Positions 12,183-64,000 of a stretch of DNA of 64,000 nucleotides are shown here, piece after piece. The position numbers and the translations under genes are program-made. The notes below the pieces were generated by a model, which saw only the letters and a program-made list of their open reading frames with translations, was not told the DNA's origin and searched no databases. Position 1 is the first letter of the stretch; each line of letters opens with the position of its first letter. This stretch comes from Amoebophrya sp. A120 (Eukaryota > Protista > Dinoflagellata). The stretch covers positions 10,596,311 to 10,660,310 of the forward strand of contig CAJINV010000001.1 in NCBI GenBank assembly GCA_905178155.1. Direction: 5' to 3'.

Positions 12183-15100
12183 ATGGAAGTCGAATCCGAT
12201 GATCGGGTCGAGTACCAGCCGGCCACCGCGCCGCCGCCAACTCGGACCGTGGCCTCCCGCCCAATGTCGGCGCACCAGCCCTACAACCAACGCCGGCAGG
12301 GACCACAAAAGCAAAACCACGCGGACCGGCCCATTTCCGCGAAACCGAACCTGCAGGAGAACAAGGCCTCCGCGTCCTCTGCTCAGATCCTGGATGGCTC
12401 ATCTTCGTCCCCGAACCGATACAGGACCAGTCCGGACAGAAATTATTTCGCGGCAGGTGCTGGTTCCGGTGTCGGCGCTTATCAGCAGCAAGTACCAATG
12501 CCGACGAACATGGCAAAACCGCTTTTCTCCTACAACACCGCCGCGTCGTCCTCAACTGCCCGCGGAATGATGACTCACCAGCAACAGCAAGTGCAAGAGA
12601 TGAGAAAAACTTCTCGTACCTACGGGTCCGGTAGCGCAGCCGCGGCGCAGCACGCGCAGCGAGTGAACGGCTCGTTCGCGGACCACCTTCAGGCTGTGTC
12701 GATGAAGGAGCCGGAAGCGCCCCTCGCACCATCGGTGTCTTCGCAAAGAACGAGGCCTGGGGTAGGGAGTCAAAAGCAAAGCAATGAAAAGGGAAGGAGC
12801 GTAAGTGGTCGAGAACCCACAGGCAAGGAAACGATTCCGCAGTCCAATACAGCCGGTCCTCGTGGCAAGCAGCACCAGCAGCCGAACTTCCGGCAGGTGG
12901 AGCAGAATCTTTCGAGCCCGAATAAGCAGTTTTTCTTCTCTCCCGACACCTTCCCCTCGGTCAGAACAGGCGGACACGTGCAACCGGCGCGCCGGGAACC
13001 GGATCCGACGACGAGCAACCTGATTTTCTATCACGACGAACCGGAGGACGACGTGTTTTTCGATCCGGCGATGGAGCCGCAGGAGCCCGATCCCGGTCGC
13101 GCAGCGAAGAAATCCAGTAAAACTTTCCGCTACAAGTTTGGTCCAGCCTCGACCGTGTACGGGAAGGACCGAACGCTGAACTACACAACGCACTTGACCG
13201 ACATCGCGCACTACCGGCCCTACTCTGCGCAGCCGGTGGTCGAGGCCAAGCCGGTTTCCCGGCCGGTCAGCGCGTCCGGGTACGAAGACGGAGGCATGGA
13301 CGTGTTTATGGAGGAAGAGCCCGCGCCGCACGGCCACTTCGCGCACCGCCTGGACCCGGACCGCCCACGCGCCCAGTCAGAAGACGCGTATGGCTCCGGC
13401 GGTGCAGTACCGGGTTCCCTGCAAGTAAGAATGCAAGCAGACCGCGCGTATTCCGATTTGCCGCCGGAAACGAACGTGTTCCTTGAGCCCGCCGGGATAG
13501 CCGCGAAAGCGGTAAAGGAACCGAACGAAACGGGCGTCCAGATGGTCCGGCCGCCGAGCGCAATGGCTACTGCTGTAGCTGCTCCGGCGAAACCCGATGC
13601 AGCGAAACCACCGAAGCCGGCGAGCAAGCAGCGCCAGATTGTGTTTTCGGACAAAACCGCGAGTAGCTCGGCATCCAACGCTGCGCAGCCACCATCCAAC
13701 GCCGCTGCGTCTTCAGGCTACGGGTTAGGGAGCCAGCGGGTGGGCATCCAGGACATCTTGGCGCAGCCGGAAGTGCAGCAGAACGTGCCCCAGGTGCGGA
13801 AACCGCCGGTCGGCAAGTTTGATAAGGCTCCCCCGGGCGGGGACCCGCAGAACCCCTCGGTGCTTGCCATCCGACCCAGCAGCGCACGACCGCCACCGCC
13901 AAACCCCAAGATGGAGATCAAGTTGCCTCCCACGCCGTTCCACCAAGCGGTATTGAGTTTTCCCTGGATTACTGATATGGATATTGCATAAACAAGAACT
14001 GTCGAGGAAGAGGAGGAGCACTCCGACGCACATAAAACGCAAAAAGTGACTGAATTTCATACTCAGGCGAAGCAACTGGGCCCTCAGTGGACGAAGCTGA
14101 GCCGGCTTTATTCCGCACCTCCTAAACGTCCACCACCAGCCTTGGATCCAGGCGCACCGCTGGAGCGCGTCATCCCAGAGCCGGAATTCGAAACGCGCAT
14201 GCCTGTGAACAAACGTACTGAAACTGTTATGGGTAAAATCATTCTATGGTGATTGCATTGGAAGAAGGGTCGGCTCATGTGAATCGTCGTGTGCAAGTGC
14301 ACTTGCACAGAGCAAAGCGCCCACTTAGTACTTATGAAGAGAACAAAAGAGAATCATGAACCACGACAGGTAAACTCGTGGAGCTGCAACAAGCGGCACT
14401 AGCCGGGGACCGCAGGCTTGTCAAAGCCTACTGTATCACAAACAAAAAGTATCTCCACTGCACAGACGATGACGGCTTCACGCCACTGTATTTTTTGCTG
14501 CGATAATATTTTCATCCGAGATGATGTAGTTGACGTAGTTGTTCCGAGAGCAAATTGTTCATCCCTCAAAAAACCTTCTCAGCATCCTCTGTCACGCAAA
14601 TACAGGCACTACGCGGCCATCGGTGGAAGCGGCGAGTGTTTTATCAAATGTAAAAATGTCTGGGTCTGGAAGGGTTGGAACTTGTGATGCAAACTCTGGA
14701 ACACACAAAAAATTGTGTTGCATGACCGCCAAAAGCTGTCCATTTCTTGGCACGCAAGTAGGAAGTTTCTCATGCGGGACAGGCATCATGAGGCGTGCTC
14801 AACACCTGTGAAGCTTTTGCCTGCATCAGACGCCATTTGCGTGATCCGAAATATGCATGACAAATCTCGCAATCTTCCAGACCCAGACATTTTTACATTT
14901 GATATGTTTCCGGCAGATGCTGTACGCGGGGGCGGACCCCGAGCACTTCGGCCGGGGTCGGTGGACGGCCGCGCACGCCGCGGCGGCGAACGAGCAGACG
15001 CACGTGTTGCAGGTGATCAAGGAAGAGTGTCCGGAAATGTTTTCCTTCACGGACGACAAGGGGTGGACACCGCTCGAGTGGCTCCGGGTGGTGGTGGCAA

Positions 15101-24295: not shown

Positions 24296-26879
24296 ATGAC
24301 AAGGCTCGGCATTGCGGCCGTCGCCGCACTGTCCGCAGCCCCGACGGCGCTCTCCGCCAACAAAGGCGTCGACCCGGAGGCCCTACTCGAGCAACTCACC
24401 CTCGACGAGAAGCTGCAGTTTTTTCACGGAGATGCCAATACTTACGTCGGTTTCGTTCCCGGTGTCCCGCGACTGGGCATCCCGGCCATCACCATGCAGG
24501 ACGGACCCCAGGGGTTTCGCCAGCCGGATAGTGTGGTGACCACCGGGAGCAGCACCCAGTTCCCGTCGAATCTCGCGATCGGAGCGACCTTCGACCACCG
24601 CATCGCGTACTACTACGCCAAGTTTATCGCCAAGGAGTTCCGGGGCAAGGGGGCAAACATGCTCCTCGGGCCGGGGGTGTGTCTGAACCGCGTGCCATAC
24701 GACGGCCGGAACTTCGAGTACCTCTCCGGTGAGGATCCCGTGCTCGGCGCGGAGATGGCACCCTACTACGTGCAGGGCGCGTTGTCGGAGAACACCATGA
24801 CGTCCGTGAAGCACTTTATCTTCAACAACCAGGAAACGGAGCGCGAGTACGTGTCCTCGGAGGTGCCGGAGCAGGTCGGGATGGAATACTACATGAAGCC
24901 CTTCATCGCGGGCGTGGAAGCAGGCGCTTCGAGCATCATGTGCGCTTACAACAAGGTACTGGCTCATTCCTGCTTCATCTTTTCTTGTAGCCGAGTAGAA
25001 GATCATGCGCCTTAAAAATACCTCCTTCTTTCTCAATAATTCTTTCATGTTTACTCCCTAGTTCTCCAACTTGTCGCAAATCCACATGTAGGTAAATGGC
25101 ACCTACGCGTGCGAGAACGCCGACGTGATGAAGCGGTTGGAGAAGTTTAGCGACAACTACTTTGTGATGTCGGACTGGGGCGCAACGCACAGCAGTTTCA
25201 AAGCCGCCAATGCCGGCCTGGCCATGGAGATGCCGACGGGTATCCACATGTCGCCCGAGAACATGAAGAAGGCGCTCGCGGAGAAGAAACTGGACATGAA
25301 GACCGTGGACGGACTAGTGCTTCGTACTTTGAAGGCGTTGAAGCAGGCGGGGCAGTTGGACGGGAAATTTCCAAATTCCGGCGACGTGATGGCCAACGTA
25401 ACGCTTCCCCTGCACAAAATGGCGGCGACCATCTTCGTCGCGGAGTCCATGATTTTGCTCCACAACCAGTTCCGGCCACACACCGGGAACGGGAACAGCA
25501 AGCCACTGCCGCTCTCCTTGGAAAAGGGGAAAAAAGCGGAGAAAGTTTTCCCGGTCGGGTGTGGGCACGAGCTGATCACCGGGGGCGGCGGCAGCGGACA
25601 TGTCCTCCCGTCGATGACGGTCACCGTTGCCCAGGTGTTGCAGCAAAACAACCTGCTCGCCCAGAGCATGGAGGACGCGGACGCGGTAGTTTACTGCTTC
25701 AGTGAATACAGCGCGGAGAACAGCGACCGCTCCTGGCTCGGCGTGAAGGGTCCGGCTTCTATCCCGACCGACGAGTTGAAGAAGCAAATCGAAGCTGTGG
25801 CCGCGGATAAGAGCAAAAAGCTAATTCTCTACGTCTCCACTCCGGGGCCCTTTTTGCTTCCCATGGAACTGTCCAAGACCGACGCAGTGCTCGTCAACAT
25901 CTTTCCCGGCGAGCGCGCGGGGGAGGCCCTCGCTGCGGTCTTGTTTGGTCGCATGAGCCCCAACGGGAAGCTGCCGTTTGCGCTGCCGAACGTGGAGAAC
26001 GAACAAAAGATGAGCAAGGAGCAGTACCCGGGCGTCGGGCCGGTCCACGGCACGCACGCGCACTACACGGAAAACTTGGAGTTCGGTTACCGGTGGTACC
26101 AAGCGAGAAATATCCAGCCGAAATTTCATTTCGGCCACGGTCTGTCCTACGGGTTGGAAACCGCGCACATCACCAACGTGTTCTGGGCGAAGGAGAAGAA
26201 TTTAGTCCGGTTTTGCGTCGAGCACCAAGAGCCCGCGGTAGAAAATACCGCACAAGTAGAAAAACGATCTCTTGTGTCTGTCTTGGCGGAGGAAGCGAGC
26301 AACTTTGTCACCGCGAACTTGAAGACGACCGCCCACTTCCAGCCTCCCGAGCACGAGTTTCTCCGCGGGCGATTTCTGTCGCAGAGCCAACTTTTCACGC
26401 AGCTCGTGGAGGCCCCGGTGCAGCCAACGACCGCCGCTGCCAAGCTCGGGTCCGGCAGGCCGACGAGTGAATTGCTGCAGGAAGCGGTTTCGCAGCTCCA
26501 GAAGCAGCTGAAGGAGGAGGGAAACAAGCAGGCTTTGTCCCTGCACGGAACCGAAAACTTTGACCTGATCAATCTGCACGAATCCTCGAAGCAAATCCCC
26601 GTGAAAGTTTCCGTGCAGTTCTACGTGAAGCATCGGGGCAGGAAATTCCTCGAGCTGGTGCAGTTCGCCTCGGTTGACAACGTCATTCCCAACGAAAAAT
26701 CCTGCAGCCTCGCGATGTACGAACCGCCGGTGCAGTGGGACGTGAGTTCCGCAAAAATGGTCCGCGTCCCCGAATTCGACTTGTTCGTCTCGAAAAATGG
26801 AATCAGCGAGGCGGAGTACGTCGGCACCTACAACCACGACACGGAGGCGGCTTCCGAGCCCGAGGTGCTCTTCGCGTGA
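24296..26879 (+). CDS. Secreted GH3 beta-glucosidase
   Basis: Signal-peptide-like MTRLGIAAVAALSAAPTALS; LTLDEK, DGPQG, GRNFEYLSGEDP, KHF, CAYNK|VNG across GT-AG intron 24956-25091, nucleophile motif FVMSDWGA, FGHGLSY. Confidence 0.95.
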
Positions 26880-31358: not shown

Positions 31359-31877
31359 GACTGCTCCTCGCGATGCTGAAATTGAATAACAAGGTTGTGT
31401 GACTATAAAATCTAGTGATTAGGATTACGTTTCGTGCCATGCAGGTTTCTTTTGGAAAAATTAAAGAAAAACATCGCGTTTATTTCAAGCCCAGGGAACA
31501 CAGCTTTTGAAACAAATGACGAGCGGCGATCAGTCTTCGCCTGTGGTTGCAGTCGTCTGATGTTTCTTTTTCATGATTTCTGAAGGTGCTGGAACACTTG
31601 TGGAAATATTTCATCTACTCTCCAGCGCAAGATCTTCTCTGGGAGATGAAGGCTTGGGTTCATCTGCGTTTCAAAGACCGGCTTGTCCCAGTGGCCGAAC
31701 CTTGAGACTTGAAGTATGTTCTCTTCTTCTGGCGTCATCAGTACGGACAGAGCAAGAAAAATAGACATAGATGGTTTTTTCTTTTCATTAACATGCTGAT
31801 CGAGGATTACTTTGCTATGTTTTCGGACCAGTTGGAACAACGTCAAGTCAAAATCTGTATGAAATGCGAGCAGCAGA

Positions 31878-33245
31878 ATGCGTCTTTCCTGCCTTGTGGT
31901 AGCTGTGAGCTGCAGCCAAGAAGTAATTCGGGCCCTCGCTAGTACTTCTGCAAGCGTTTCAACATCCGCGGACATGCTGCGCAAGTATTTCATTCCTGTG
32001 GAGGCGGAATCTCGCGCCTTGGTCGACGAGCTGCTGCACTATGCGAAAACTGAAATCACAAAGCACTACGATGCCATCGCGCAAAACCTGGCAAAAAACC
32101 ATCTCACCAACAAGACCATCGACCTCCTCTGGCCCGGCGCGGGATACCTCTCAGTGGCGTGCGGCGGACAGTGGCAAGTGTTCTCGGAGCTGAAACATTT
32201 AATCAAAATAGACCGAATCTGTGGCGCCAGCGGCGGCGCGTGCAGTGCGATTCTGGCGGCCCCCAACACGGATGCGCGGTTTTTGCTCAACGCGTACTTG
32301 GCCTACGCAAAACATCAGGAAACCGAGGGACTGTCGTCCGAAGCGTGGCGCGTGACGGACTTGTGGAGGGAGGTGTACTTGGAGCAAGTAAGGCGGAGAG
32401 GAGTTGCACATGAACAAGAAAAGACGCTTTTATTGAAAAAGCGCTTCATCGCAGTTTCCTCTCACATGATATCCGCACCAAACACCGTCTTTCACGACTT
32501 TTCCAGCGCCGAGGAGCTTGCCAACGCCGGGGTCGCGAGTGGAGAGCTAACGCCCTATGGAATGACAAAGGGAGTGTTTGTCTCCGATAGCGATAACCCC
32601 AACGTCCCGCGAAACTGGTACGGTAGTCCTCAGCGTTACATGGATGGCGGGCTCGCGACGCACCTGTCATTTGTTCAGGACGCAGACATCATACGCAGAA
32701 GCGAAAATTATAAAGAACACCGCCCTCCAAATCCGTTCCTCACGTACAGTACATTTTTCCCGGGAAGAACCAGTAACGCAATCCGGTGCACGAAGGAATC
32801 CGTTGAGTGGCTCTTTCGACAGGGAGTGGACGACACCGTGGAATTCTTGCTCAATCCCTCCCTTTCCTCCACGGAAAGGATCATGCTCCACCGTGCCGAC
32901 CAGTGGGACTACTCCGGCATAATTGGCGGCGACATGACCATATCCCGGCACGGCCGACAGATTGTGGAAGAACAAATTTTCGCGCAAATTCGCGAGGTCA
33001 GGGAGAACAACGGCTCATCTTCTGCTGCGGCGAAAAATTTCGCGTGGGGAAATCGCGCAGTGTTCGGTCAGCATCAAGAGTCATCCTCGTTCTTGCAAAA
33101 CAGCTTCGGAACCGAACCAACAAACTTCATTCGCTTGTCCAACGAACGGCAGGATGTTAGAGCACCACCGCCTCCCGGTGAAAACGACGACGAGCTATTT
33201 ACTTGGCCTCTGATTGCGCGACCTCATAATAGTGCCACGCGATGA
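31878..33245 (+). CDS. Patatin-like phospholipase, probably secreted
   Basis: Oxyanion loop WPGAGYLS, nucleophile elbow GASGG (GxSxG), catalytic YMDGG and a hydrophobic N-terminus. Confidence 0.85.
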   Translation: MRLSCLVVAVSCSQEVIRALASTSASVSTSADMLRKYFIPVEAESRALVDELLHYAKTEITKHYDAIAQNLAKNHLTNKTIDLLWPGAGYLSVACGGQWQVFSELKHLIKIDRICGASGGACSAILAAPNTDARFLLNAYLAYAKHQETEGLSSEAWRVTDLWREVYLEQVRRRGVAHEQEKTLLLKKRFIAVSSHMISAPNTVFHDFSSAEELANAGVASGELTPYGMTKGVFVSDSDNPNVPRNWYGSPQRYMDGGLATHLSFVQDADIIRRSENYKEHRPPNPFLTYSTFFPGRTSNAIRCTKESVEWLFRQGVDDTVEFLLNPSLSSTERIMLHRADQWDYSGIIGGDMTISRHGRQIVEEQIFAQIREVRENNGSSSAAAKNFAWGNRAVFGQHQESSSFLQNSFGTEPTNFIRLSNERQDVRAPPPPGENDDELFTWPLIARPHNSATR

Positions 33246-33638: not shown

Positions 33639-36600
33639 CCAAATCTCTGCAAGCAAAGGACGAGAACGGACCAAAGATGCGTCTGCTCGAACGGGCGCAC
33701 CGTGGTTGTGGGGAGCTGCAACTCGGGAGGCAGACCCCGCGTCCCTAGCTCACGAAAAATGTGATCACCTCGGAACGCAGACTCGCCCTCCAGATGGAGT
33801 TCTCTCGGCGCGACCTGAACATAGGGCCCTTTCGCGTACGGGCAACTACACGCAATACTGCAGGAAATAAAGCAAAAGCGCACACAAAAATTCTATTCAG
33901 CCTCTTTTTCGCAGTCTTTTGCTCATCCCCTCTTTTGATTTTGTTCTCAACGCCCACTCTCGCCACATGCCCTGCCGGCTTGACTACTCGCGCCGCCTCG
34001 TTGGTGAACAATGCCCGTACTTTGTCTATCTCCAGCTCTATCTACCATAACTGTCGAGCCAGCGGTGGAACCTTGGATTTCCTCGTCGACCCTGCCGACG
34101 TCACTCTGGGGTCCTCCCCCGGTATGACATCTGGAACCGCGACCGCAGAGTACAACAAAGTTTGTCTGGGCTCGGGTGTGGCTTGCCCGGACGGCGTGCA
34201 GTTGGACGGGCAGTGCGTGCGCGCGCCGGACCGTGTGGCGGTCACAACCTTGGACTTTACCCTGGACATCCACGGTGATTACTACCCGAGCCTGAAGGAC
34301 CAAATCCATTCCGCCAAGTATGTCTCAGCAAGTCTTGTCGCTGGTCGAGGGAGGGCTTTTGAGTGATTTGACAGTACTCATAAATCTCCCGCCGCACGTT
34401 GTGCTGCAATTGCCTACCTGCATTTTTGTTACGTGTTGATATTCTCGACCGCCCATGCAAACGTGCACATAATGTGACTTCTGAGCGTTGTATAACTCGA
34501 CATTGATTCTGTGCCCCCCCAGCACCAGCGTGTCGCTTTTCCTTTCCACCCGATCTTTGAGTGGGCGCACCGCCTGGCCACCGCACTTGGAATACCCATC
34601 TCCGAAATTGAAATTGCGACCCTGTTCACGCCCTTTCCGAACGCAATTAAGCCGACTCTTTGGAAGTTTCGACGCCAGGGGTTGCCTGGCGATTCAGCAA
34701 GACGGTCATTGGAAAATAAAAACGATACAACTGGCGGTGTCCCGACTAAAGCTGAACAAAAGCCAACAGTTGTAGCCAAAAAAACGAACCTCCGAGGGCG
34801 TCGGAGGCGCACGGCGACGGAGGCGCCGACACGGCGCTTCGCGGTCGCCTTTCACGTCGAGACGACGCGCGCCATTGTGGACACTTGCACGGACCTGTTA
34901 ACTGCTGTGGATTGGACCCTACTCGTGGGCGTTATTGGGCATCCAGTCACCTTACTCAGCGGCCCGGAGCTTCGCACGTGGTCGGCCAGCGCGGGGCTGA
35001 CCTTTTCCGCCTACACCGCCTGGCTCCAGCTGAAGACCGAGAACACGGAGAACCCGCCCCTGCACACGGAATGGGAGGTGGTCACGCTGAAGCAGCACAC
35101 TTCCGCGCCCATCACCGAATACACGAACGAATGGACACTGCTGATCTGTAACCAGGCCCTGTACAACATGCGGCTCACCATGACGCTGACCTGCGAGCAC
35201 AAGTACGACGAGCAGTCCACCGCCCCGAGCAACAGCGTGCTGACCACCGCCGTCCAGTTTCAGTTCAGCTACAAGACCCAGGTGGAGTTTGGCATCGTCA
35301 GCTCCGTCACAAACCGGATCAAGGAAACGCTGGCCGGGGCGATCTTCGGCACGAAGAACGTGGCCCAGGACCGCATGCTCACGCTCGTCGCGAACACGGG
35401 GCAGGCGAAAAGCAACGGACAGAGTTACTTCGAGGCGGGCGTGATCGTGCAGGCCCTGGTGCAGGCGCCCGGGTGGCAGTCCTACAGTTCCGAAGTGGCA
35501 GCGCAGGCGGTGCAGTCGTACTGCTGCAACGTGGCGAACGGCTTGAAGCTCCGCCAGAGCTTCTTCTCGCACCTGCAGCAGGGCCTTGCAGCCACGGACA
35601 ACAGCCAATTCACCGCTTTCGAGTCGTACATGGGGAACAAAGAAAGCAACTTCATCGACTTCTACGTGTCCATGGCGGAAACGTTGTATCAAAAGCGGAT
35701 CCCGAACCTGATCGGCGTTTGCGCGTCCACCGATACGACGTGCACCACGGACGCGCCTCTTGAGGGCACGAGTTCTGGTGCGGGAAGTGGGACCAGTTCA
35801 GGCTCGGGATCCGGCACGACCCAGCTCTCTCCCGGCGCGCAACTGTGCGCCAACCAGAAGACCTTCTGCGACTGCGCGGCGGCCAACTGCGCGTGGAACA
35901 GCGCCACGGGGTGCGTGGACAGCGGCGGCGTCCCGATTTCGTGCGTGCAGTGCCCGACCATGGCGAGCTGCCCCAACGCCGAGTGCGCCGGGTTCACCAA
36001 GCCGTGCACCTGCGCCACCGTGGACAAGTGCGCGTGGGACGTCAGCCGGCTAAGCTGTATCGTGAACTCTGTGGGCGTCAGCTGCGACAACTGTCCGAGT
36101 CAGCCTAAGTGCATGCCGCCGTTTGTGTTGTCCGTCACCCCGGCCAGCCAAGCGTCGGTCAAGTCGACGCAGGTCGACTTTTCCTTCCAGTTCTCTGAGC
36201 CGGTCTCGTTGACGAATCTCGGACAAACCACGCAATGGGCGACCATGCAGTGCACCAACGCTGGCGCCTCCAAGAGCATCGTGGCCGCGCACCGCATCAA
36301 CAGGGAGCGCGTGCACTTTGACCAGGTGATTTTGCTCCCTGCCGTCACAGAGCCAAACGCGGAAACCCGCACCTGCTCGCTGTCCATCGCAAAGGACACA
36401 CTGCAGGACAGCCACGGCCTGCCCTTTCCGGGTGTGACGCACCAAATCACGCTTCTGGACGCGGTGCCGCCCTACTTGAGCATGCACGGTCCGATTCACA
36501 GTGAAAACACGCAGCTAGAGTACAGCGATCCGCGTTTGCTGCTGCTGTTTGCAGAGCACGTCAAGACCGCGCCCGAAGCGATTCTCTCGCTGCCCCACTT

Positions 36601-51209: not shown

Positions 51210-54200
51210 TCACTGAGAGGAGTTCCGGGGATCCGGGACCGGCTGCGAGGAGTTTCGTGGGTCCGGGGGCGTCGGCGACCTCGACCTGTCCCGGTGAACA
51301 GGAGCTTCGTGCGGGGTGAATTGCCGGTCAATGAACGTTCGCTTTCCCTTTTCCTCGTCCGACACCTCCGGTCGTCCTGAGGTGAGCGCTGCGGCCGGCA
51401 CTCCTGACCGCATCCTCGCGTCGACCACTTGCACGGGCACTGTGCCGCGAGCAATATACGTGGACGCCTTCGCCGGATGATGATGGCCGTGATGTGCCTC
51501 TGGGGCGCGCAGCACACCTGCTTGCTCGGGCCTGCCAGAGGTCAGCGCCTCGGGCGGCACTCCCGTGCGCATCCTCATGTCCACAGCTTGTATACCGCCT
51601 CGCCCCAGGTAGGTCGACGCCTGCGCATCATCGTGAGCGGCTGTCTTGCCGTGAGCCTCTGGACCGCGCAGTACGCCCGCGTGCTCCGGCTTGCCGGACG
51701 TTAGTGCCTCTGGCGGTATGCCCGTGCGAAACCTCATGTCCACTTCCTGTACGCCGCCCCGGCCCAGGTAGGTCGACGCCTGAGCGTCATCACTTGCGGG
51801 TGTCTTGCCATACGGCTGCGCGCCGCGCAGCAGCCCCGCGGTCTCCGGGCTGCCGAATGCCTGCAGCTGCCGCATGTCCGCCGTTTGCACGCCGCCCCGG
51901 CCCAGGTAGGTCGACGCCTGGGCATCATCACTTGCGGGTGTCTTGCCATGAGCCTCCGGGCCGCGCAATAGCCCCGCGGTCTCCGGGCTGCCGGAGGTCA
52001 GAAAACGCCTCATGTCCATTGATTCTACGCCGGCACCGCCCAGATAAGTCGACGCTGCCCCGGTTTGTGATGCTGCCCCCGGACCAATTCCCGGTGCTCC
52101 ACCGGCCCCTCCGGTGGGTGCGCGGCCTGCATAGCCCGACGCTGCCCCCGTCGTCGATGGTGCGGCCTCACCCGGACGTCCGGCATAGACATGAACATTC
52201 TCGGTCACGGCACTGGGATCTCGGCCCCGGAATCCCGACGATGCTCCCGTTGGTGGCGTTGCCCCCGGTGGACCAGTCCCCGGTGCTCCACCGCCGGCAC
52301 CCCCGCGAGGGTCTCCGCCTAGAGAGCTCGACGCTCCACCGGGATTCGGGGCTCCGCCGGACCGCCCAGCGAGTGGTGCATTTCCGGCCCCGGTCGGTGC
52401 CCCAATAGGTGCTGCTGCCCCCGGACCAGTCCCCGGTGCTCCGCTGGCCCCTCCGGTGGGTGCTCGGCCGCCAAGATAACTCGACGCTGCTGCACCACCC
52501 GGAGGTGCACCACCCAGAAACTGCCTCATGTCCATCGATTCTACGCCGGCGCCGCCCAGATAAGTCGACGCTGCCCCGGTTGGTGGTGCGGCCCCCGGAC
52601 CAGTTCCCGGTGCTCCGCCGACACCTCCCCGAAGAGGGTCTCCGCCTAGGTAGTTCGACGCTCCGCCGGGACCCGCGCCCGGTGCTCCGCCGGACCGACC
52701 AGCGAATGGTGCATTTCCGGCCGCGCTCGTTGCGGTTCCGCCCCGTGAGCGGTACAGTGCTGACGGTGCCCCTGGACCACCGTCCGAAGCTCCGCCGTAC
52801 CTCCCCGTGAATGCTGCAGCTCCGGCCCCGGTCGGCGCCCCACCCGGGGCTGCTCCAGTCCCCGTCCCCGGTGCTCCGCCGGTCGCCCCGAATGGAGGTT
52901 CTCCGCCAAGATAGTTCGACGCTGTCCCGGGACCAGTGCCCGGCGCTCCGCCGGACCGCCCAATGGATGCTGCAGTTCCGGTACCGGTCCGTGCCCCACC
53001 AGGCCCTGCTCCCGTACCCGTCCCCGGTGCTCCGCCGGTCGCCCCGAATGGTTCTCCGCCGAGATAGTTCGACGCTGCCCCGGGACCAGTTCCCGGCGCT
53101 CCGCCGGACCGCCCAATGGCTGCTGCAGTTCCGGTACCGGTCCGTGCGCCAGCCGATGACGCGGCTCCCGGTGCTCCGCCGGACCGCCCCGTGGATGCGG
53201 CATTTCCGGCCCCGATCGGGGACCCCGCAGGAGATGCTGCCCCCGCCCCGGCGCCCGGTGCTCCGCCTGACCTTCCAGTGGCTGCTGCAGCTCCCGCTCC
53301 GGTGGCCTGAGCGGCATCGCCGGCAGACTTCTTGCCGTGGACCTGCCTAGCGGTCTTCTTGCCAACCCGCGGGCCACGTAGCTTATCTGCGTGCTCTACC
53401 GCACCGGACGTCAACGCCCGGGGGTCGACTCCCTTGTCCATGTCGACGGGCGTCGTCGTACCTCCACCGAGGAATGTCGACTGATTCGGAGAGCTTTCGT
53501 CGGAGCTGCTCGAGGATGATGATCCCTCTCTCGACAGTTTCATGGCTTTAGGGTTGATGGACATCTCCTGGCTCGAAAGCCGGGGATCCGGAGTGCCCTG
53601 ACTCGAGTTCCGGCGATCCGCCTCGTGTGCGTGGTGCCCGTGGGCAACTCCGCCGGGGCGAAGCATGCTCAAGTGCGAGGCGTGCTCCATTCTTCCGGAC
53701 GTCAGCGCCCGGGGGTCAGCCCCCTTCCTCATGTCGACAGGCTGTGTCGTGCCCCGTCCAAGGAAGGTCGACTCTTGGGCACCCGCTGGAATCTCCCCGC
53801 TGGAAGTCCGTGGCGGTGGTGATGGATCTTGGTCCACGACGCTCTTTTTCTTCTTCTGGGCGACGCCCGCACGGGGCCGGTGCAACGGCGACGCGTGTTC
53901 CGCCTGCCCCGAGGTGCGGTCGCCGGCGGGCTCGGTCGTCGTGCGGCCGAGGAACGTTGAAGAGTTCGGGCTGCTGAATCGCGCATTCGATCCTTGCTGA
54001 CTTGCTTGCGCGCCCGAGGTCCGGGGGCTCGGGGTCCTGGCGGTGCGCGGCCGGTGTAGTGGCGACGCGTGCTCGGCCTTGCCGGAAGTGAGCGCCCTCG
54101 GGTCGACGCCTTTCTGCATGTCGACGGGCTGCGTCCCGCTGCCTGCCAAGAAGGTGGATTCCATCTGCGCACTGCTTTTCCTTGCGGCACTCGGGCGGCC

Positions 54201-57200
54201 GCTCTGAATGGTACTGCGTCCGCTGACCGGATTTTTCGTCGTTACTTCCGGCTGGAAGTTGTATCCGCTGGGCTGATGGGTGCCGCTGACTTCTCTAGAG
54301 GATCTGAGCTCCGCGATCTGGCCCGTTCCGGTTTTTTCCGCCCATTGCGGTAGGTTTTCAGGCGTCGCGTGTTTGGGTCCCGCTCCCCCGTCCACGTTCT
54401 GAATGTTCAAAGGCCACACCGCGTCGCGCTCCAGTACCTTGAACTGCACGGCGTCGTCCCCCTGGAACCGGAAGGCGCTGGAATGGATTGACGCCCCCTT
54501 TTGTTTCACTCCCCCCGACATCATGCTCGACTTCCTCCTGGACTTCGCAAGCTTGCTCGACTCCCTCCCGTCCCCGGAGGTGCTCCTCTTCTTGTCGCCA
54601 CCCACCGACCGCCGCGACACCTGCGATGGGGCTTTGCCTTCCAACACCCGGAACTTTACGCTCTCGCTTCCCATGCCCGCGAAAGCGTTGGAATTGACCG
54701 CGATAGGATCCCCACCCGGCCGGAGTCCTCCCGACATCACCGAGGACTTTTTCCGCGACTTCCGCTCCCCACTGCTGGGGCCGCTGCTGCTGCCCGGTTT
54801 GGACGACGTCCTCCCGCTGCTGGGGGGCGCGCCAGGAGTCCCGGACAATCGGTCCGGCGTCTCGGCCCTGCCCGAGGTCAAGGCACGAGGGTCGACGCCC
54901 CGCTGCATGTCGATCGGTTGGGTCGTGTCGCGGCCGAGGTAGGTCGAGTCCACGTTTTTCGAGTCGGGGGCTTTCCCGGACACACGCCCCATCGCCTTCG
55001 CTCGCAGCGCGGTCAACTTCTCGGAGGCCATCCTGGACCGACGCCCCGCTCCGCGGAAGGACACCTTGCCGTCGGGGTTCGAGGAGTCCGACGAGGAGCC
55101 GCCCAGCTTCGTGGTAAGCGAGTGCGGGGACGTCTCCAACCGTACCTTGCGCGACAGGTCGTCGTGGATGTCCTCGTCGGGCAGCGTGGGCGCGTTGTGC
55201 TCCAACAGGTGGTCGCTATCGTCGTCCGCACCCGCGTGCGCGTCCTTCGTGGCCACGTGGTCGTAGTGCACCAGCGGGCCGCCCGGAACGCGCCGGCTGC
55301 CGAACATGGCGTCGTAACTGTTGCTGGTTGTCTGTCGCGCGCCCGAGTCCAGGTTGCTTTTTGGGCTCTCCGTGGAGATTGCGTCGCCCTGCGGGCCCTC
55401 GGGAACGTCGGGGATGCCGAAGTCGGGCGGTTCGGCATCTTCGGCGGGCTCCTCCGTGAGAATCTCCTCCTCCTCGTCTTCCAGCGGCGGCTCCTCCTCC
55501 TGGGTCTCCTCCAATGGCTGATCATCATCCGCCGGCTCTTCCCCGACCTCCTCGCTCAACGGCTCCTCCTCGAGGACCTCCTCGCTCACCAACAAACTGT
55601 CCATCATACCGTCGTCCGCGAAGGCCACGGCCCGCTCCTCGACCTGCAGTGCGCCGAACGAGTGCATCATCGCGTCGCCGGCCGCCGCGTTGCCCTCCTC
55701 CTCCGCCGGGCCTCCCACCGCGCAAGCCAGCACCGAAATGCAGCACATCACCAAAATCACCAATGCCACCAGCAATATGATGCACCACTGTGGTTTCAGA
55801 GTGAAGGTTGAATTTATCTTCGTGGAAACATATCTAATTTATCTTCGTGCTTGAACAAGCGGGCTCCATTTTTTCGCACGAATTCCGTGCAGCGTTGAAT
55901 GAAAAAAGACACGGTCTTCACGGCCTGAAAAAGCAGAAATGCGTAGTATTGCAGCAGGTAACAGTACTCGTATGGGAAAAAAGTCATTATAAGTACTTAC
56001 CTTCTTGCAGGCCGATGTCTCCTCAGTCTTCTTGTGCGATCCGTCGGCGCCGGACAGAGGGACCACAACTGGCGGACTTTCAGAGACGGGCAGAATGGGA
56101 CCAACCGGAAGAGGAGGAGTGGCGAGGGGGTTCATGGGCTCCTGCAAGAGCCCGCGGGAATTCCGGTCCAAAGCGTTCAATATTTCGTCGTCGGTACCCG
56201 GGCAAAAGGACCTTCCGTCGGGACACAAAACATAGCCTTGCTCCGCCATCAGCATCTGAAAAAAAGGATCGTTCAGCAGAGCCGACAAATCCCACCACCC
56301 CGAGGGTGTCGGCGCTGGAAAGTAGCCGGAGCCGCCCTGGTCGCTCCACGTCTGGTGCGGGAAGTGGTTCCGCAGCGCCATTGCATCCAGTGGTGCGTTA
56401 CCCGACACTGCCCGCGACTCGAGCTGATCAGGGGATAGGAATTCCATTTTTCTATCCAAGAAAAAACCGCAAGTGTCGGAGTTCTGTTCTGGTTCTGAGA
56501 AGCGGAAGCCTCGGTCAGATGACAAAAACAACACTTTAATACTTCTACTCACGAAAACATGCAAAACGATACGATGCCTCCAAACGAAGTGCTCCGCATT
56601 GCACCCGGACATGATAATGTCCGTCAGAGGCAAAGAACGATGATTGGAGTTTACATACTGTACCAAACGCTATACAAATCTTGAAAATTCAGTCTAAATA
56701 CATGCTCGAGTTCCATTTTCACCAAAAAGAACCTCGACTCTCACAATAAGTTTTTTCTTGGGTAGTCTCCGCTCTGAGGGTAATACACCGCGTACCGTCC
56801 AGGATCGACGGTGGTATCTTCCGTTCCGACCGCTTGCGCCGTCTTCGCGTCCTCTTCGAGCGACCCGGCTAACTCGTAGCCTCCACCCGGACCGTACAGT
56901 TGGTTGGGACCATAGCCGCCGTACTGTCCATCGGCACCTTCGTAGAACTGCCCCGCCCCTGCTGCACCCTCGGGGCGCCCGTTCCCCCGCAGTGGACTGC
57001 CAACCGCCCGCGAGCCCGCCCCGGAACCGGCAATGCCTTGGCTGGACATGAGGCCTCCCGCTCCGTGGTTCCCAGGATGTCCACCTGCCATTCCGGGGCC
57101 CCAGCCCCCCGGTCCGCGGGCCTCGTCGCCGCCTGCAGCAAGGGCACCCGCGCCGGCAGCTCCCGCCCCGAGCGCGCCCGCTCCAAAGGCGCCAGCACCC

Positions 57201-60200
57201 AAATTCAGGCCCCCCAAAGTGATGGGTTTACCGTCTCGCCCAATCGGTAGTCCCCTCGACCTATCGATGGGGATGGCGGGAACGCGCTGCACAAGGATGC
57301 CGATCCCGTAGTCGACCGGATTCCGGTCGCTGTAGGGGTCGTGCGGATGGCTGTAGGGGTCGTGGTCGTTCCGGAGGTGCTGGGGTCCGTGCCGGTTGCG
57401 ATAAGGGTGGTACCGACTCCCTGGACCGCGTCGTCGTACCAGAAGAGGCAAGCCGTGCGGGAGCATGTCGGCACCGGACGGGTACCACCCCCAAGAGTAA
57501 CGGGAACCAGGCATCTCGTACTCGTAGTAATGTGTACCTCCCGCCCCCAGTACCATTCCTCCGGCGGCGCCACCGGGTGGTGGTGCGATTGGCAGCCGTT
57601 CCTGCGACGCTCGGTCAGGGAGGTGGGGCGCCCGACCCCAGAAGTTCCAGCGCTGCCTGGCCTCTCCGAAGACAAACGTGGCGAGAATCCCCTCCATGAT
57701 GTCCCACGCACCCGCGGCGTCCCCCAAGCCGAGTGCGCGAGCCAGCGAGTGATGCGGAACGTAGATGACCACAAAGAGAGCGTGCATGATTTGCGTTGGG
57801 GTGCAGTAGGATCCGTCGTCTCCCGTCCACGCATCGTTCTCATCACCATAATTTGGCTTCTGGTATCGCGCCAGCGGAAAGGGTATGGGTGGCGACTCGT
57901 TCCCGCCATTTTGCACGGCCGCGTTCCAGTTTTCCACGGCCCGCCGCTCGCCGGCAACCAGCTCGTCCACCAACTCGGCGTAGAACATGAGTGGATCTTG
58001 CAGCGGCGGTAGCAGTGCGTCCGCGTTTGGCGCAACATCTGCCCCGCCGGCGCCCTCGCCGTCCTCGAAATAGGTTGCGTCCGGTTGCTGGCTCTGCAGA
58101 AACGATTGGTCCCCTGCGAAGTCGAGCTCCCTGTTCCGCACGCGTGCATCCTGGTGCCGGAGCACCATTTCTTCCAAGTCCATCACCGTCCGCTTTCCTG
58201 CCACCTCCTCCAGCTCCTCGCGGCGTCGCTGATGGATCTGGAAGCTGTCGGGAAGAAACTTGTAGCCCAGCTCTTCGTACCTCGCGGGAAAAATGAAGTG
58301 CGACCGCGGCGGGTCAACCTGTACGTTGTACGGATCCGGATCCTTCTCCCGCAGGATCTCGACTGCCGCGAAGATGTGTAGGTCGTCCATCATGTTTCCA
58401 GGTTCCTCGTCAGCAACCATCACAACGTCGCGCCGCGATACCGCCGGCGAGAGACGATAGAGCAAGTACATCATAGCAGCCCGATGGCTCGGCTGCGCTC
58501 CCCCCATCTGCTCTCTGCCCGCCCCTTGGGGGTTGTGAGTGGAAAGTTGGTCTTGGTCCAATTGAGACTGCACGTACTCTATCGCGCGGTCGTACAACGA
58601 GAGGCCCGCATTGAAAGGTTGCCGCTCGCCGCCCAGCGTCAGCTCGTTGGCGGTCAGCCTCTGGTGGTCCAGCAAAAACACAAACACCTGGTCGCGCTGG
58701 TCCTTCTCGAGAGCGTAACCACGGTAGCCATCCTGCGTAACGTACTCGTCCATCCGCTGCGTCTGGCGGTTGAACCGGGAATACTCCGCGAAGACCAGGA
58801 ACCTCACGTCCATATGCTTCGCCAGAAACTCCTGCATGTTCGGTGCTGCAATCGCTCGGAAGTCTTCCCACGTGCAGAGGATGAACGTACCAAGCTGCTG
58901 CTCTTGCTTTTTCTCCGTGTACGTTGGGTTGAATTTTGCCAGCGGTCCCGTACCACCACCGTTATCAAATCTCTCCATCAGCTCCCCCAGGCCGGACCAG
59001 TATGGCGTTTGGCAACTGTTACAGTCGGAACTGGTACATGAATTTCTCATGCAAAACGAACATCAACATGAACATCCACAAGGTGAAGCTGCTTCACGTG
59101 GCAAAAAATTCTGGAAAGGCTACACAGCACCTAAATCTACTGTGTGGACGAATTTGTAATGTCACAGGTGAAACCGCCCCGCTTTGACTTTTCCCATCCT
59201 TGCATCACAAATTCATGTAACAGTTGAGAATGTAAAAATTGAGAACGCCATAACCAGACGATGACGGTTCGGAACGCGAATCCGGCTTTGAAGTCTTCGT
59301 AGGTCTCTGCGTACCTCTCTTCGAAGTCTGGCTGGCTGATTTTGAACGCTCCGTGAGGCAAGATCGCGTGAAAGCGGTCCACCAGCGCACTTGTGAGCGC
59401 GGCGCGCACGTCCTCGAGCCGGTCGCCCATCTCATCGAGCACGAACAGGTTTGTGTCGCCGACCGCGTGGAAAAGGTGGGGCGGCCCCGCTCGTTCCTCC
59501 GTCGAGAATTCCAGGGCCACGGCATCGGACGAGCCGCCCGCGGGAGTCCCGGCGCCGAAGCTTATCCAGTACCCTTCCGCGTCGATGAAGCCGTGCTCGT
59601 CGCCGGACGAAGCAATCAGGTTGTTCTGTTGTTCGTTTTTGAAGATGCACACCGGGACTTGGCAGCTTTCTTTCTCGAGCTCTTCGTAGTGCTGGTCGCA
59701 GGCGTCTTCGGTGTCCACCTCTCGGTTGATTTTCACCGTGCGCACGAAGGGCCTGGCCCAATGCTCCGTGGGATGTCTCGAACGAAACAATGCGCGGCGG
59801 AGTTCGTTGTGCGGAAAGTAGTTCTTCCGGACCTCTCGGTCCCCGGGGCACCGCTTGCCGCGGTAGGGTTCCGGGATGTTCGGGAAGTCCACTATCTCAC
59901 CGGTGAGCACGTCAATGTAGGGATCCAAGGGGAACGTCCCGTCTGTCGCATACAAAGAATTCTCGCTCTCGCGCACGCGCTGGATCTGCGTTTGCACATC
60001 AAATCGCTGAACCGGCGGTGCTGCAAGGTCCTGCTGTGGATATTCGGCCGTCGGTACTCCTGGTCCTGCCATTCCATCACTCATATCGTCCCATGGTTCT
60101 TGCTGCAGGTCCTGCTGCTGCTGCTGCTGGGCGCGGGTCTTGTGCGTGTCCAAAAACGAAAGTGCCGCTTCGTGCGAGGACGCGGGGAGCTGCTGCGTTT

Positions 60201-61737
60201 GAAGCGCGGCCACTCTGCTCGGGGACCTCGGCGTCCCCACGCCATCCCCCCCTAGCACACGCGGGGCCGAGCTCTCGGGGTAGAAGCCGCCTTCCAGGAA
60301 ACTGGCTGCGCCCGCCTGGAATTGTCTCTGGTCGGCTTCCATAGCGTCTTCTCGTCCTCTGAGAAAGTTCAAATGTGGGGGCATATGATACATGTCCTGT
60401 GCGACTAGACGCGCAGCCAACTCCACCTTCCCCTCTACTGTTGTTCCGCCACCTTTCTTGAAAATGCCGCGTTGTCTTGTGTCTTTCTCCTGGAGGTGCC
60501 ACTCCATGCGCCCGAACGCGTCCACGTGTGCAATCAGGAACATTTCCGCCTGAGTAACTGTGTCGCGGAACGTAAGCACCGTCCCCCCGTGCTCTTCCCC
60601 CTCTTGTCGACTCTCCATCGCTTGCATTTGCATGGCTCCCTGGTGAGAGAACTCGATGAGCTTCTGCGCGTGCGTTTGGAGCCCCCTCTCCACCTCCGCG
60701 CGCTTGGCCGCCAGAACGTCGAGCGAAGGCTGGGGGCCGATGCACCCCTCGTTCCTCTGCGTGGGGACGTGCTGCACCAGGTACCGCGGGGGCATAATGT
60801 CTGGGTTCAGGTACTCCCATCCCGGCAGCAGGTGCGGCGCCTGCAGCCGCATACCGTCCTGAATCTTCATTTTCCACATCCCGTGGAGCATTCGCGGTTG
60901 GCGCGTGACGTGGAGCACTCCGTTCGCGTCCTGTACCCAGGCGACGGGCTCCAAAAACTCAGACTCCTGTCCGGCCAACTGCGCCGCGCTGCGGTAGTTG
61001 TACTCCGCTTGCGGCACGCTTATCGCCGGGCTTTGCTTGATCGTCAGCGCCTTATCATTTTCGGGAAAATTGGGCGCAGGGATGAGCGGTTGCGCCCGGT
61101 CACCAGGCCCCATCCTGTCGTCCCCGCCGAATAACGTGCTTCCTTGTTGTAACTGCTGGCCGGACGGCTCGGGCTCTTCGTTGGGCTGGATTGCTTCCAA
61201 AAAAGAAGAGTCCGCGGCCTCCACGCGCCCCATCGTCGTGACGTCGCTCTCCGCCAGGCCGAGTTGGTGCGCCTCACCTTCGCAGCCGCTCGCGTGATCT
61301 GCTTCGGGTTCGTTTTCGTCGGAATCCTCGGCACGCTTTGGTGGAAGAGATTTTTGCACTACTGCATCGCCTTCGAGCGGCGCCGGATCCCCGCCACCAG
61401 CGGCGGTAGCCGTGGTTTTTGCCGCCTCCTGTAGGCGAGGTTTGTTGACTTCTTCCCCCCACTTCTTGGTGCGAGCAAGGAAGCCGTCGCTGCCGTGGCC
61501 CATCAAAGTGGCGTAGCTGATGCCTCGCTTCGACAACCACGACGAGAACGATCCCGGTGTCGGCGACGGACCCGAGTCCTCATCTGGCGAAACGTGCTGC
61601 TTCTGAGGCTTTCGTTTCTCCAGAAAGTCGCGCGCTGCGCCCGTCCGCGCCTCGTGCAGAAGAACGATACCAGCCACGAGCGTGCGCATGCGCAGCCGGA
61701 AAGACTTTGATGTCTGTTTCATGGTGTAACTTGACAC
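51210..61737 (-). CDS. Giant (~3,250 aa) type I membrane protein: signal peptide, ~1,700-aa ectodomain, single TM, ~1,500-aa repetitive tail
   Basis: Four ORFs join in phase: 61737-59253, 58995-about 56765, about 56450-56001 and 55787-51210, through two TIR introns and one GT-AG intron (56000-55788). N-terminus RMRTLVAGIVLLHEARTGAA; TM WCIILLVALVILVMCCISVLACAV. Confidence 0.75.
51380..54950 (-). repeat. Coding repeats: ST(Y/F)LGRG..VDMRxGxDPRALTSGxxEHA and Gly/Ala/Pro-rich GRSGGAPGTGPGAAS(N/T)YLGG units
   Basis: Multiple dispersed and tandem copies are visible in the 1521-aa ORF translation. Confidence 0.9.
56453..56764. mobile_element. Introner-like TIR element, same TIR subfamily as 1925-2133
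   Basis: TATCCAAGAAAAAAC / GTTTTTTCTTGGGTA (14/15); degenerate direct repeat TTTTC/GTCTC. Removing 317 (or 314) nt fuses ORFs 56741-59050 and 55839-56666 in frame. Confidence 0.82.
59001..59252. mobile_element. Introner-like TIR element (~54-bp imperfect TIR, 5-bp direct repeat ACCAG)
   Basis: TATGGCGTT...AACTGGTACATGAATTTCTCATGCAA pairs with 59200-59252. ACCAG at 58996-59000 and 59253-59257. Removing 257 nt gives RTVIVW-SGLGELM in frame. Confidence 0.92.
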
Positions 61738-62781
61738 AAGGGAAAAATAATCAGAAACAGTTGGCGAGGAAAAGAGTCTTATTGAAATAAGAAAAAGGTT
61801 GGAGAAAATGATTGAAAATAGGCTTGGAAAAATCGATAGTGGTGTTGTTGCAAATGTTGTAAAATTACAATTTTCAAAGCGGTAGGCGTAAAAAAAATAG
61901 TGTAAAACAGTATGTTTATGCGAGTACTTGCATCCCGAATTCGTCGTGTTAAAAAGCGACCTTTTGATGTGTTCTCGAGAAAAGTGCGTGAGTCGTTGAT
62001 GTGGCCGAAAATTCTTTGTATTTTAGTGTGCTACAACGTGTGTAAGTACAAGTAGAAGGATTAGTTATTGTCAGAATGCAGTAAAATCAAGGATTCGCAC
62101 AAGGGCAAGTCCTGGTGGTGGGTTTTTGATTGGTTAGCGTGTTAACAAATTCGTCAGTGACATGGATAAGATGACAGACCTTGAACGATTCCAGACAACG
62201 ACAGCCAGGTTGTTCAGTTGTACGAAAGTGAAGGAAAGTGTCCTGTAGTACGAGTAACAGGGCGGTTTTTCACGCTCAAGACAGCCTCGACCGAACTGAA
62301 CTAGTTTCGAGGCTCAACCGAAGGCACTGGTACGACGTAGGAGGATTGTTTGAACGATAGAAGTAGAGCACTGGCAGCCTGAAAACCGAGTTACGAGAAG
62401 TGTCACTTCGTAGTCAGCACGGGAGACGAGGGCTCGGCAGCCAAACCGAAAAAAATCCTTGCCTTATTTGCACCGACGGGAATTCAGTACTTTGGGGTTG
62501 GTTCTGCACGAGAGAAAAAGAAAAACATGGAACAGCCATGCCGGAAAATTGAAAATTTTTCTGGGTTTTGAATCAGACGATCTTTTCTCACGTCCGCTGC
62601 GACAGCAACCGTGAGACGTGGCTAGATTTGACGTTGCTTATCTCGTGTTCGAAGAACACGCACACACACAATGCATACTTTTCAAATAAAAAAGCAACAC
62701 CGCACTTTTGCCTCCCCTCTTGCGCCGTTCCCGGTCAAGCAACTCGTGTGATTCGATTGCTCTCTATCGAGTTCTAGGTAC

Positions 62782-64000
62782 TCACGTCTGCGCCCCCGCT
62801 CCCGCCCTCTCCCGTGCAGCATCTGCCGCCGCCTTTTGCCGCAGCGCGATGAGCAACTGCGTGCGGATGCGCTTCATCCGTTTTTGCCGGGACATCTGCA
62901 TGTGGTGGTGTACCATCGACGCCACCTCGTCCCCTTGCCGGTCCTCGTCTCGGGCTGTCTGGGACGGTCGTGCCCCCGCGGAGGCGTCTTGCACCCCCGC
63001 TGGGGCCGCCGAACCGGTTGCTTTCTCCGCGTTGGCCGCAGACGTGGCGGAGCGAAACCCCTCGGGATACGTTTTCATCAGCTCCTCAACAATGTCGACG
63101 ATCTCCTGCCTGTACCAAGACTGGTTCGCCTGTTGCGCGGCCTCGCTCCCCTGCAGCGCCCGCCAGATTGGGCCCCAGGCCACCGGGTCCCGCGCGGGCC
63201 AAGCGGGATTCAAAGGGAACACAAACCCGTCCGCGACGCGGTCGGCCAAAAAGGCCCGCAACTCCGGCTCGGTGACCGAAAACCAGGACTTGCTTTTCGT
63301 CGGCTTGTATGCTCTGCAAAAATATCGCACTCGTATTAATTGCAATGATGCATGACAAATCTTGTTTGTTAGCCAAATCAGCATTACAAACTTCATTTTT
63401 CCTTCTGAGAAGATTTGTATTGCGATTTATACTAGTGCGATGCTTTTGCAATGCATAGCTTGGTCCTGCTCGGTGGGCCGCCTTGATGTGACGTTGGTAT
63501 CCCCGATGCGGGAGCTGTAGTCCCAGCGGCAGAAGTCTTCGCGCCGTCCGTGATGTTGTCTCCTCCATCTTTGTCCCAGATCACGAGATACTGGTCGTCT
63601 TGCTCCTGCGGAAACAGAAAGTTAAAGCACTCGGCGCCGTGCCGTACGGCGCCGCACTCCGCCATTGCGGCCACCGTCTTCGCGATGATGTCGATGGATG
63701 TCGGGTCCCCGAAGCCGTAGGTGGGCAGCCCCGGATTGAAGTTCCCCTGTTCGCAAGCGGCGGTCAAAACCTGCAGCCAGTTGGAGGTCCAGCTCTTGCA
63801 CGTGCGCCCGGCCGCGTCGTCCGCCGCCTGCGTTTCGAGTAGCTGCCGCGTTTGCTGCAGACACCACTTCTGCAGCTCCACCTGCTTGGCAGGCAAAGCG
63901 TCGTAGCTGATGGGACCCCGAGAAGCGATCAAGAGAGTGTCAAAGTCGCTCACCACCGGGTGGACACACGCTTCTTCATAGGCGACGAGCAATCCCAAGG
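62782..64000 (-). CDS. Class II (anthrax EF / CyaA / ExoY-type) nucleotidyl cyclase-like protein (5'-partial)
   Basis: HPVVSDFDTLLIA, GAVRHGAECFNFLFPQEQDDQYLVIWD and GFVFPLNPAW occur in the order of the EF/ExoY motifs. The two ORFs join in frame after removal of the TIR element. The 3' end is uncertain. Confidence 0.62.
63308..63457. mobile_element. Introner-like TIR element (150 bp, 5-bp direct repeat GCTTG)
   Basis: TATGCTCTGCAAAAATATCGCACTCGTATTAATTGCAAT vs reverse complement TATGCATTGCAAAAGCATCGCACTAGTATAAATCGCAAT matches 32/39. GCTTG at 63303-63307 and 63458-63462. Removing 155 nt gives SRTK-PTKSKSWF in frame. Confidence 0.93.

Follow-up and report, generated by a model that had tools for sequence, protein, structure and literature searches.

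A spliced Amoebophrya gene that joins tandem cyclic nucleotide-binding domains to a predicted class II nucleotidyl cyclase domain

The locus, its transcript and the introner

The window analyzed here, a stretch of 64,000 nt from Amoebophrya sp. A120, ends inside a gene on the - strand and contains the 3' third of it, that is, the final 353 codons (Table 1). An earlier note on this DNA had pointed to three motifs of the EF/CyaA/ExoY type, and all three lie on the - strand where it had placed them: the DFD of VVSDFD (63947-63939), AVRHGAECFNFLFPQEQDDQYLVI with its His at 63641-63639, and the FPLNPAW segment LRAFLADRVADGFVFPLNPAW (63261-63199), which is in a frame differing from that of the other two. 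The switch of frame is due to an intron of 155 nt whose cut point is ambiguous by 5 nt and which is skipped in contigs from runs X1 and X2. These runs come from a single sample and their RNA nature is a guess, but X2 looks RNA-like because it also skips an intron in the neighboring gene and has zero cover over 62092-62551; runs X5 and X6 gave short low-depth pieces only. The X2 contig is 3456 nt long, of which 2162 nt extend past the window edge, leaving room for the missing 626 codons of P0001 (979 aa), the database record of the gene's product and the best match of the first-exon search, from which the N-terminal two thirds of the protein were taken. The upstream exon encodes the metal-binding half of the class II cyclase domain together with a low-complexity loop, and the stop codon lies at 62784-62782. 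The cyclase gene is a real spliced and transcribed eukaryotic gene.

Table 1. Features of the cyclase gene within the window
Feature	Position	Strand	Evidence
Exon, extends upstream past the window; P0001 residues about 627-805	63458..64000	-	tblastn of P0001; transcript-type contig cover
D644-F-D646, aligned with EF D491/D493 (metal-binding aspartates)	63939..63947	-	both Asp in 70/70 rows of alignment A2
H746 to N752 (HGAECFN), aligned with EF H577 and N583, switch B loop	63621..63641	-	H and N in 70/70 rows
Non-canonical 155-nt intron (introner), high-copy family	63303..63457	-	X1/X2 joint, inverted repeats, hairpin, X7 depth
Last coding exon: end of cyclase domain (FPLNPAW, residues 835-841), linker, C-terminal helix, stop	62782..63302	-	100% identity to P0001 806-979
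Basic amphipathic C-terminal helix, residues 930-963	62833..62934	-	predicted helix 921-978; common to a subclade
3' untranslated region	62552..62781	-	X2 contig end at 62552; 62092-62551 uncovered

The intron has terminal inverted arms of 39 nt that are 82% complementary, a 5-nt direct repeat at its borders and a predicted hairpin with a z of -5.3, which none of 200 shuffles equaled. In run X7, where the intron is present, the summed depth at its ends is about 1e5 as against 44 for the exons, which shows the intron to be a high-copy element. It thereby fits the introners described for Amoebophrya, which are non-canonical introns with terminal inverted repeats and a direct repeat of 3-5 nt that recur across the genome (PMC7789003), and it has all of these features. 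The earlier note had taken the introner as a mark of domestication; it shows nuclear residence only, and the adjacent gene, too, contains a spliced intron whose ends are repeated. The latter, of 257 nt (58996-59252), is skipped by one X2 contig of 8284 nt, and the open reading frames of that gene (59137-62022 and 56741-59062, - strand) have no Pfam match. Two further introner-like elements (1925-2133 and 14642-14904), out of seven candidates in the window, have perfect inverted arms of 12 nt, 5-nt direct repeats and low GC.

Elsewhere in the window, Pfam matches fall on five + strand reading frames (25092-26876, 31863-33242, 34496-36922, 37005-38312 and 999-2024), the families being glycosyl hydrolase 3 C-terminal, patatin, bacterial Ig-like (Big_5), DnaJ and DUF1275, and 13 of the 18 long reading frames of the window have no Pfam match. 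Coding tandem repeats occur at 2853-3415, with a period of about 96 nt, and at 51376-54161, with several periods, inside a reading frame of 1542 codons.

Architecture and predicted fold of the protein

Neither of the two in-window exons matched Pfam, and the in-window fragment had no significant match among PDB sequences (best E 0.27). The motifs are nevertheless not a matter of chance, since the same fragment finds 553 homologues and both a family member and a family profile match EF in the PDB with the motifs in register. Specifically, all five PDB matches of the cyclase-only homologue P0102 are EF (E 6.7e-5), and an 11-sequence family profile has seven matches (E 4.5e-5), five to EF and two weak ones to ExoY. 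In register in these alignments, the D-x-D motif falls on EF D491/D493 and the His motif on H577. The catalytic residues of EF, R329, K346, K353, D491, D493, H577 and N583 (PMC9223806), correspond in HMMER alignments made via the homologue and the profile to R402, K420, K427, D644, D646, H746 and N752 of P0001. The upstream lysines for which the earlier note had suggested a search are thus present, as the K-x6-K motif I (K420, K427) within KGLNVKGKS at residues 420-428. The position of EF H351, a proposed general base (PMC9223806), is occupied by Lys in P0001, in 214 of 216 CNB-bearing and in all 71 CNB-less members. P0001 does not match PF03497 at E 0.1, yet PF03497 is among its precomputed database domains; the cut-off of 25 is exceeded by P0004 (29.3 bits), P0369 (27.2) and P0372 (25.4), most of the 69 scanned proteins scoring below it, and many members already carry PF03497 and PF00027 tags from automatic annotation. 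By every comparison run, the predicted active site of the cyclase domain is EF-like.

In P0001 the order is tandem cNMP-binding (CNB) domains, beginning at about residue 20 behind an N-terminal MPLCCC, then an EF/CyaA/ExoY-type domain of about 500 residues, and then a long basic helix, and the cyclase-type motifs are IYRP (400), KGLNVKGKS, VVSDFD (641), AVRHGAE (743) and FPLNPAW (835). The CNB region matches Pfam at E 7.5e-31, and its best PDB match is the Toxoplasma PKA regulatory subunit (E 8e-26). The phosphate-binding cassette of CNBs is characterized by a Glu and an Arg. That of CNB-B is canonical (FGERAL...KRAAS, on the pattern FGE-x-AL...RAAS) and that of CNB-A is degenerate, with both Glu and Arg and an odd tail (RKIS). 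In 193 of 209 proteins, 49-50 residues separate the last CNB cassette from the DPR motif at which the cyclase domain starts. The C-terminal helix, a candidate regulatory or calmodulin-target helix, has a motif that 16 of 169 tails share, the mean after shuffling being 1.75, for a pattern that was picked after the sequences had been inspected. A PKA regulatory subunit would be a short protein made up of a docking domain, an inhibitor site and two CNBs and have no catalytic domain, and this identity was rejected for P0001, where the 500-residue cyclase-type domain follows the CNBs. The tandem CNB-A/B module is like that of PKA regulatory subunits, PKG and Epac, but the output there is a kinase, an exchange factor (GEF) or an inhibitor site, whereas in P0001 it is the cyclase-type domain.

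The model of P0001 has a pLDDT of 79.5 and a pTM of 0.75, the latter despite 186 residues below pLDDT 50, which suggests a defined packing of the domains, and the CNBs are connected to the cyclase domain by two consecutive helices (338-357). It aligns with calmodulin-bound EF (1xfv) over 229 residues with a Z of 14.2 and an rmsd of 2.8 (model 347-850, EF 308-647), at rank 18 behind CNB proteins, and with CyaA over 234 residues (Z 14.0, rmsd 3.1). Because Foldseek with the full-length model had only CNB proteins among the matches listed, the cyclase-only homologue P0102 was folded separately (pLDDT 92.2), and all of its listed Foldseek matches down to rank 24 are EF, CyaA or ExoY, the next having an E of 0.12. 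By VIA, seven class II chains match P0102 at Z 15.7-9.3 over a background of 5.0, and calmodulin-bound EF fits better than free EF (rmsd 2.9 and 5.2). Against class II structures the TM-scores by query are as low as 0.24-0.32: about 230 of the 460 residues form a shared core, around which the periphery differs. The structural identity is 14-18%, and the ESM Atlas gave no score of 0.9 or more and a poor model. The comparison with EF and ExoY structures that the earlier note had called for has come out in favor of its assignment on predicted models, and catalytic residues, predicted fold and spliced gene agree in making this a eukaryotic class II cyclase homologue. In these models, the CA/CB catalytic core fold is present and the cyclase domain is a class II homologue.

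Set beside the known class II enzymes, namely EF (1xfv, 1k90), CyaA (1yrt), the ExoY proteins of Pseudomonas and Vibrio (5xnw, 7p1h) and the family PF03497, the domain has the same predicted CA/CB core, P0102 reaching Z 11.6-15.7 against six class II chains, and it shares with the toxins both lysines of motif I, the D-x-D pair and the switch B His and Asn. It differs from EF in that no secretion or delivery domains are seen, the helical domain has no counterpart, Lys stands at H351 and PF03497 scores are mostly below the cut-off. Unlike the class II toxins, moreover, the family is eukaryotic, nuclear and spliced, with N-terminal tandem CNBs, and this regulatory architecture of CNBs with a class II domain is not seen in bacterial toxins.

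Extent and distribution of the family

Three homologue searches gave 553, 333 and 766 matches, the best 120 of each being kept, and a profile search added more, so that the collection comprises 494 proteins, of which 476 match the cyclase-only HMM and 402 are near complete. In 396 of these 402 all seven catalytic residues are kept, and the same holds for 139 of the 145 that remain once redundancy is removed at 62% identity; these figures are biased upward since the homologues were gathered as best-scoring matches. CNBs are found in 217 of the 402. The named sources are all dinoflagellate (Symbiodinium, Effrenium, Durusdinium, Cladocopium, Alexandrium, Polykrikos, Gymnodinium, Biecheleria), syndinian (Amoebophrya A25 and AT5.2), haptophyte (Prymnesium, Scyphosphaera) or diatom (Pseudictyota, Conticribra, Cylindrotheca, Asterionellopsis, Ditylum, Corethron). 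FastTree separates 248 domains, most of them from CNB-bearing proteins, from 154 whose proteins are CNB-less. The latter group holds 16 of the 17 labeled diatom sequences and has a UFBoot of 100 in a 24-label IQ-TREE tree; since this clade is wholly CNB-less, the cyclase domain can do without CNBs. P0001 forms a clade with two Amoebophrya proteins of 58-60% identity (UFBoot 98, FastTree 0.95), and this grouping with orthologues indicates vertical inheritance of the gene there. The trees were midpoint-rooted with the bacterial class II sequences left out, and we therefore claim neither a donor nor a direction of transfer. One four-CNB member (P0391 / P0291), filed under the diatom Corethron pennatum, groups with the Amoebophrya clade (UFBoot 99) and represents either a syndinian contaminant in the Corethron transcriptome or a transfer.

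Other domains are joined to the family domain in some members: a phosphodiesterase (PDE) in P0115 and P0321, EF-hands in P0030, P0076 and P0103, and DEP in P0349 and P0373. If the assemblies are right, P0115 and P0321 carry a class II cyclase and a class I phosphodiesterase on one chain, in both orders, and so join synthesis and breakdown. DEP, another membrane-targeting signaling module, is borne by the CNB-less members P0349, P0373, P0436, P0447, P0452, P0473, P0474, P0487 and P0490. Database names such as PKAR, PRKAR2A, BCY1 and Prkar1b on members look like mis-annotation from the CNBs. In Symbiodiniaceae genomes the label of PKA regulatory subunit is attached to the family or cluster members P0127, P0220, P0221, P0224, P0225 and P0237, and counts of these subunits in Symbiodiniaceae may be inflated.

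Beyond the eukaryotes, pattern-limited scans, which would miss distant relatives, found no member among 25 pattern matches in viral contigs. In prokaryotic genomes two of 56 pattern matches passed tblastn, but their E values with the cyclase-only HMM (0.21 and 0.64) mark them as chance; they lie in actinobacterial proteins (L001 3001-3156 and L002 3001-3153) that we take to resemble glutamine synthetase-family enzymes and not cyclases. A tblastn search of plasmids and phages found no member and also missed EF itself, so that the search is too insensitive to speak against bacterial relatives. The profile search with alignment A1 had 99,835 matches at E 0.001, the best 150 of which were crowded by CNB, which puts distant bacterial relatives beyond its reach.

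A proposed endogenous cyclase and its alternatives

Based on these data we propose, with a probability of about 0.6, that the protein is a nucleotidyl cyclase tethered to a membrane and serving the cell itself, and that cNMP binding to its CNBs, rather than a host protein, probably acts as the switch. In the hypothetical mechanism the N-terminal Cys cluster would be palmitoylated, anchoring the enzyme at the cytosolic face of a membrane. Mg-ATP would bind in the cleft between CA and CB via R402, K420, K427, D644, D646, H746 and N752 and be cyclized to cAMP, although NTPs other than ATP are possible substrates. The binding of cAMP or cGMP to CNB-B would shift its C-terminal helix, which is continuous with the cyclase domain, and so order the active site. 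We slightly favor activation by the cNMP, either self-amplifying or as a relay from cGMP to cAMP, over feedback inhibition by the product. A precedent for this logic is Anabaena CyaB1, a class III cyclase that is activated by its own cAMP through a GAF domain: there, too, a cyclase is switched by a cNMP on its own N-terminal domains, although the fold is class III and the sensor is a GAF domain rather than a CNB.

An endogenous, cNMP-regulated cyclase is what the acylation motifs, the fixed spacing from CNB to cyclase domain and the fusions with PDE, EF-hand and DEP point to. The logic of N-terminal Gly and Cys acylation motifs is established, and MG..C or CC N-termini, which we read as predicted myristoylation and palmitoylation signals, occur in 43 of 185 probably N-complete members where about 2.3 are expected from composition. 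On the other side of the balance are the Lys at EF H351, the low TM-scores, the degenerate CNB-A and the existence of the CNB-less clade. In addition, the class II enzymes of bacteria have next to no activity unless calmodulin or actin is present (PMC9223806); a eukaryotic enzyme would encounter these in the cytosol of its own cell, and we count this against our proposal.

The same dependence raises the possibility that calmodulin or actin, acting in trans, is the main switch of an endogenous cyclase and that the CNBs merely tune it. All characterized class II enzymes require such a cofactor (PMC9223806), some members of the family have EF-hands of their own, and the CNB-less diatom members must have another switch. 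The basic amphipathic helix at the C-terminus of P0001, which is conserved in its subclade, resembles calmodulin-target helices; its motif is, however, missing from 153 of the 169 tails, and an IQ-like pattern is seen in only 13 of 287. The match to EF also ends at residue 647 and leaves the EF helical domain (659-800; PMC9223806) unmatched, and the fixed CNB spacing suggests direct coupling, so that a switch of this kind appears unlikely. Slightly less likely again is that the fold and its ATP/metal site serve some other chemistry, such as a different cyclic or linear nucleotide product or the transfer of a nucleotide to protein. This would accord with the Lys in place of H351, with the alignment of only about half of the domain to class II structures, and with large family-specific invariant segments (GWETGR, YGFGDP) that are unmatched in EF sequence alignments, but it has to be set against the exact match to EF at all seven catalytic residues, and the fusions with CNBs and a 3',5'-cyclic nucleotide PDE tie the domain to 3',5'-cNMP signaling.

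The earlier note had left the choice between an effector and an unrecognized signaling enzyme, and of these the signaling enzyme is the better option. That the protein is secreted, as a toxin or parasite effector, and raises cAMP in the cells of a host, prey or competitor is nonetheless suggested by the owner of the gene, Amoebophrya, being a parasite, by relatives in Prymnesium and Alexandrium, by hydrophobic N-termini in 8 of the 185 probably N-complete members, and by the fact that all characterized class II cyclases are secreted toxins (PMC9223806). We regard it as improbable. The signal peptide that was to be looked for upstream is not seen in P0001 by a crude hydrophobicity scan (best 10-mer 1.1), and the protein starts instead with an acylated-looking Cys cluster. 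Pfam scans of 69 proteins (12 + 57) found no toxin delivery domain (RTX, PA-binding or MARTX), and the named relatives are for the most part algae with a free-living or symbiotic life, the family extending to coral symbionts and diatoms. The cell's own calmodulin or actin would, moreover, switch on a toxin-type enzyme at home. Assignment as a toxin, in the sense of bacterial origin and delivery to a host, is thus at odds with a spliced eukaryotic gene that has neither a hydrophobic signal nor a delivery domain. That the sequence comes from contaminating bacteria, was recently transferred or is a defunct remnant might be thought of for a domain type previously known from bacteria only (PMC9223806), but with a spliced transcript and an introner, Amoebophrya orthologues at 58-60% identity, intact residues, and no true prokaryotic or viral member in the pattern-limited scans, it is scarcely credible, and splicing together with orthology refutes it.

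Our preferred reading, the endogenous CNB-regulated cyclase, can be placed beside what has been reported. Barrio-Hernandez et al. (2023; Nature, PMC10584675, Fig. 5b) described an algal 'Anthrax_toxA-like' cluster in which several proteins partly match EF structurally, and suggested toxin systems. Their cluster is probably the same family. The sections of that text drawn on here say nothing of fusions to CNBs, of the residues of the active site, of members from dinoflagellates or parasites, or of an endogenous role. Searches of the open-licence literature, the subscription journals being mostly outside this coverage, showed no report in which the CNB fusion, the integrity of the active site or an endogenous role is described. 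A 2022 review, in the part cited here, has class II comprise only bacterially secreted cyclases (PMC9223806). The gene is real and expressed, and it belongs to a large eukaryotic branch of class II cyclases that has hardly been studied and for which catalytic activity is predicted. A wider proposal, which we hold more tentatively and at somewhat less than even odds, is that dinoflagellates, syndinians, haptophytes and diatoms run a second, unrecognized system of cNMP synthesis on the class II fold, which in dinoflagellates and haptophytes would be a single-chain, lipid-anchored and self-amplifying switch, turned on by its own class of product via CNB domains like those of PKA and often carrying the wrong label of PKA regulatory subunit.

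Should eukaryotes have a large branch whose active site is intact, the definition of class II as bacterial and secreted only would no longer hold, and, if the proposal is true, class II is not a toxin-only class. The origin of EF, CyaA and ExoY would become testable, as a toxin captured from, or donated to, a eukaryotic signaling enzyme. Control of a class II enzyme by CNBs would amount to a new design of regulation, and the enzyme could serve as a harmless model for the activation of this fold. The eukaryotic branch would also supply major plankton groups, among them coral symbionts, bloom formers, their parasites and diatoms, with a source of cNMP that genome surveys overlook, partly because its members are automatically named PKAR or PRKAR.
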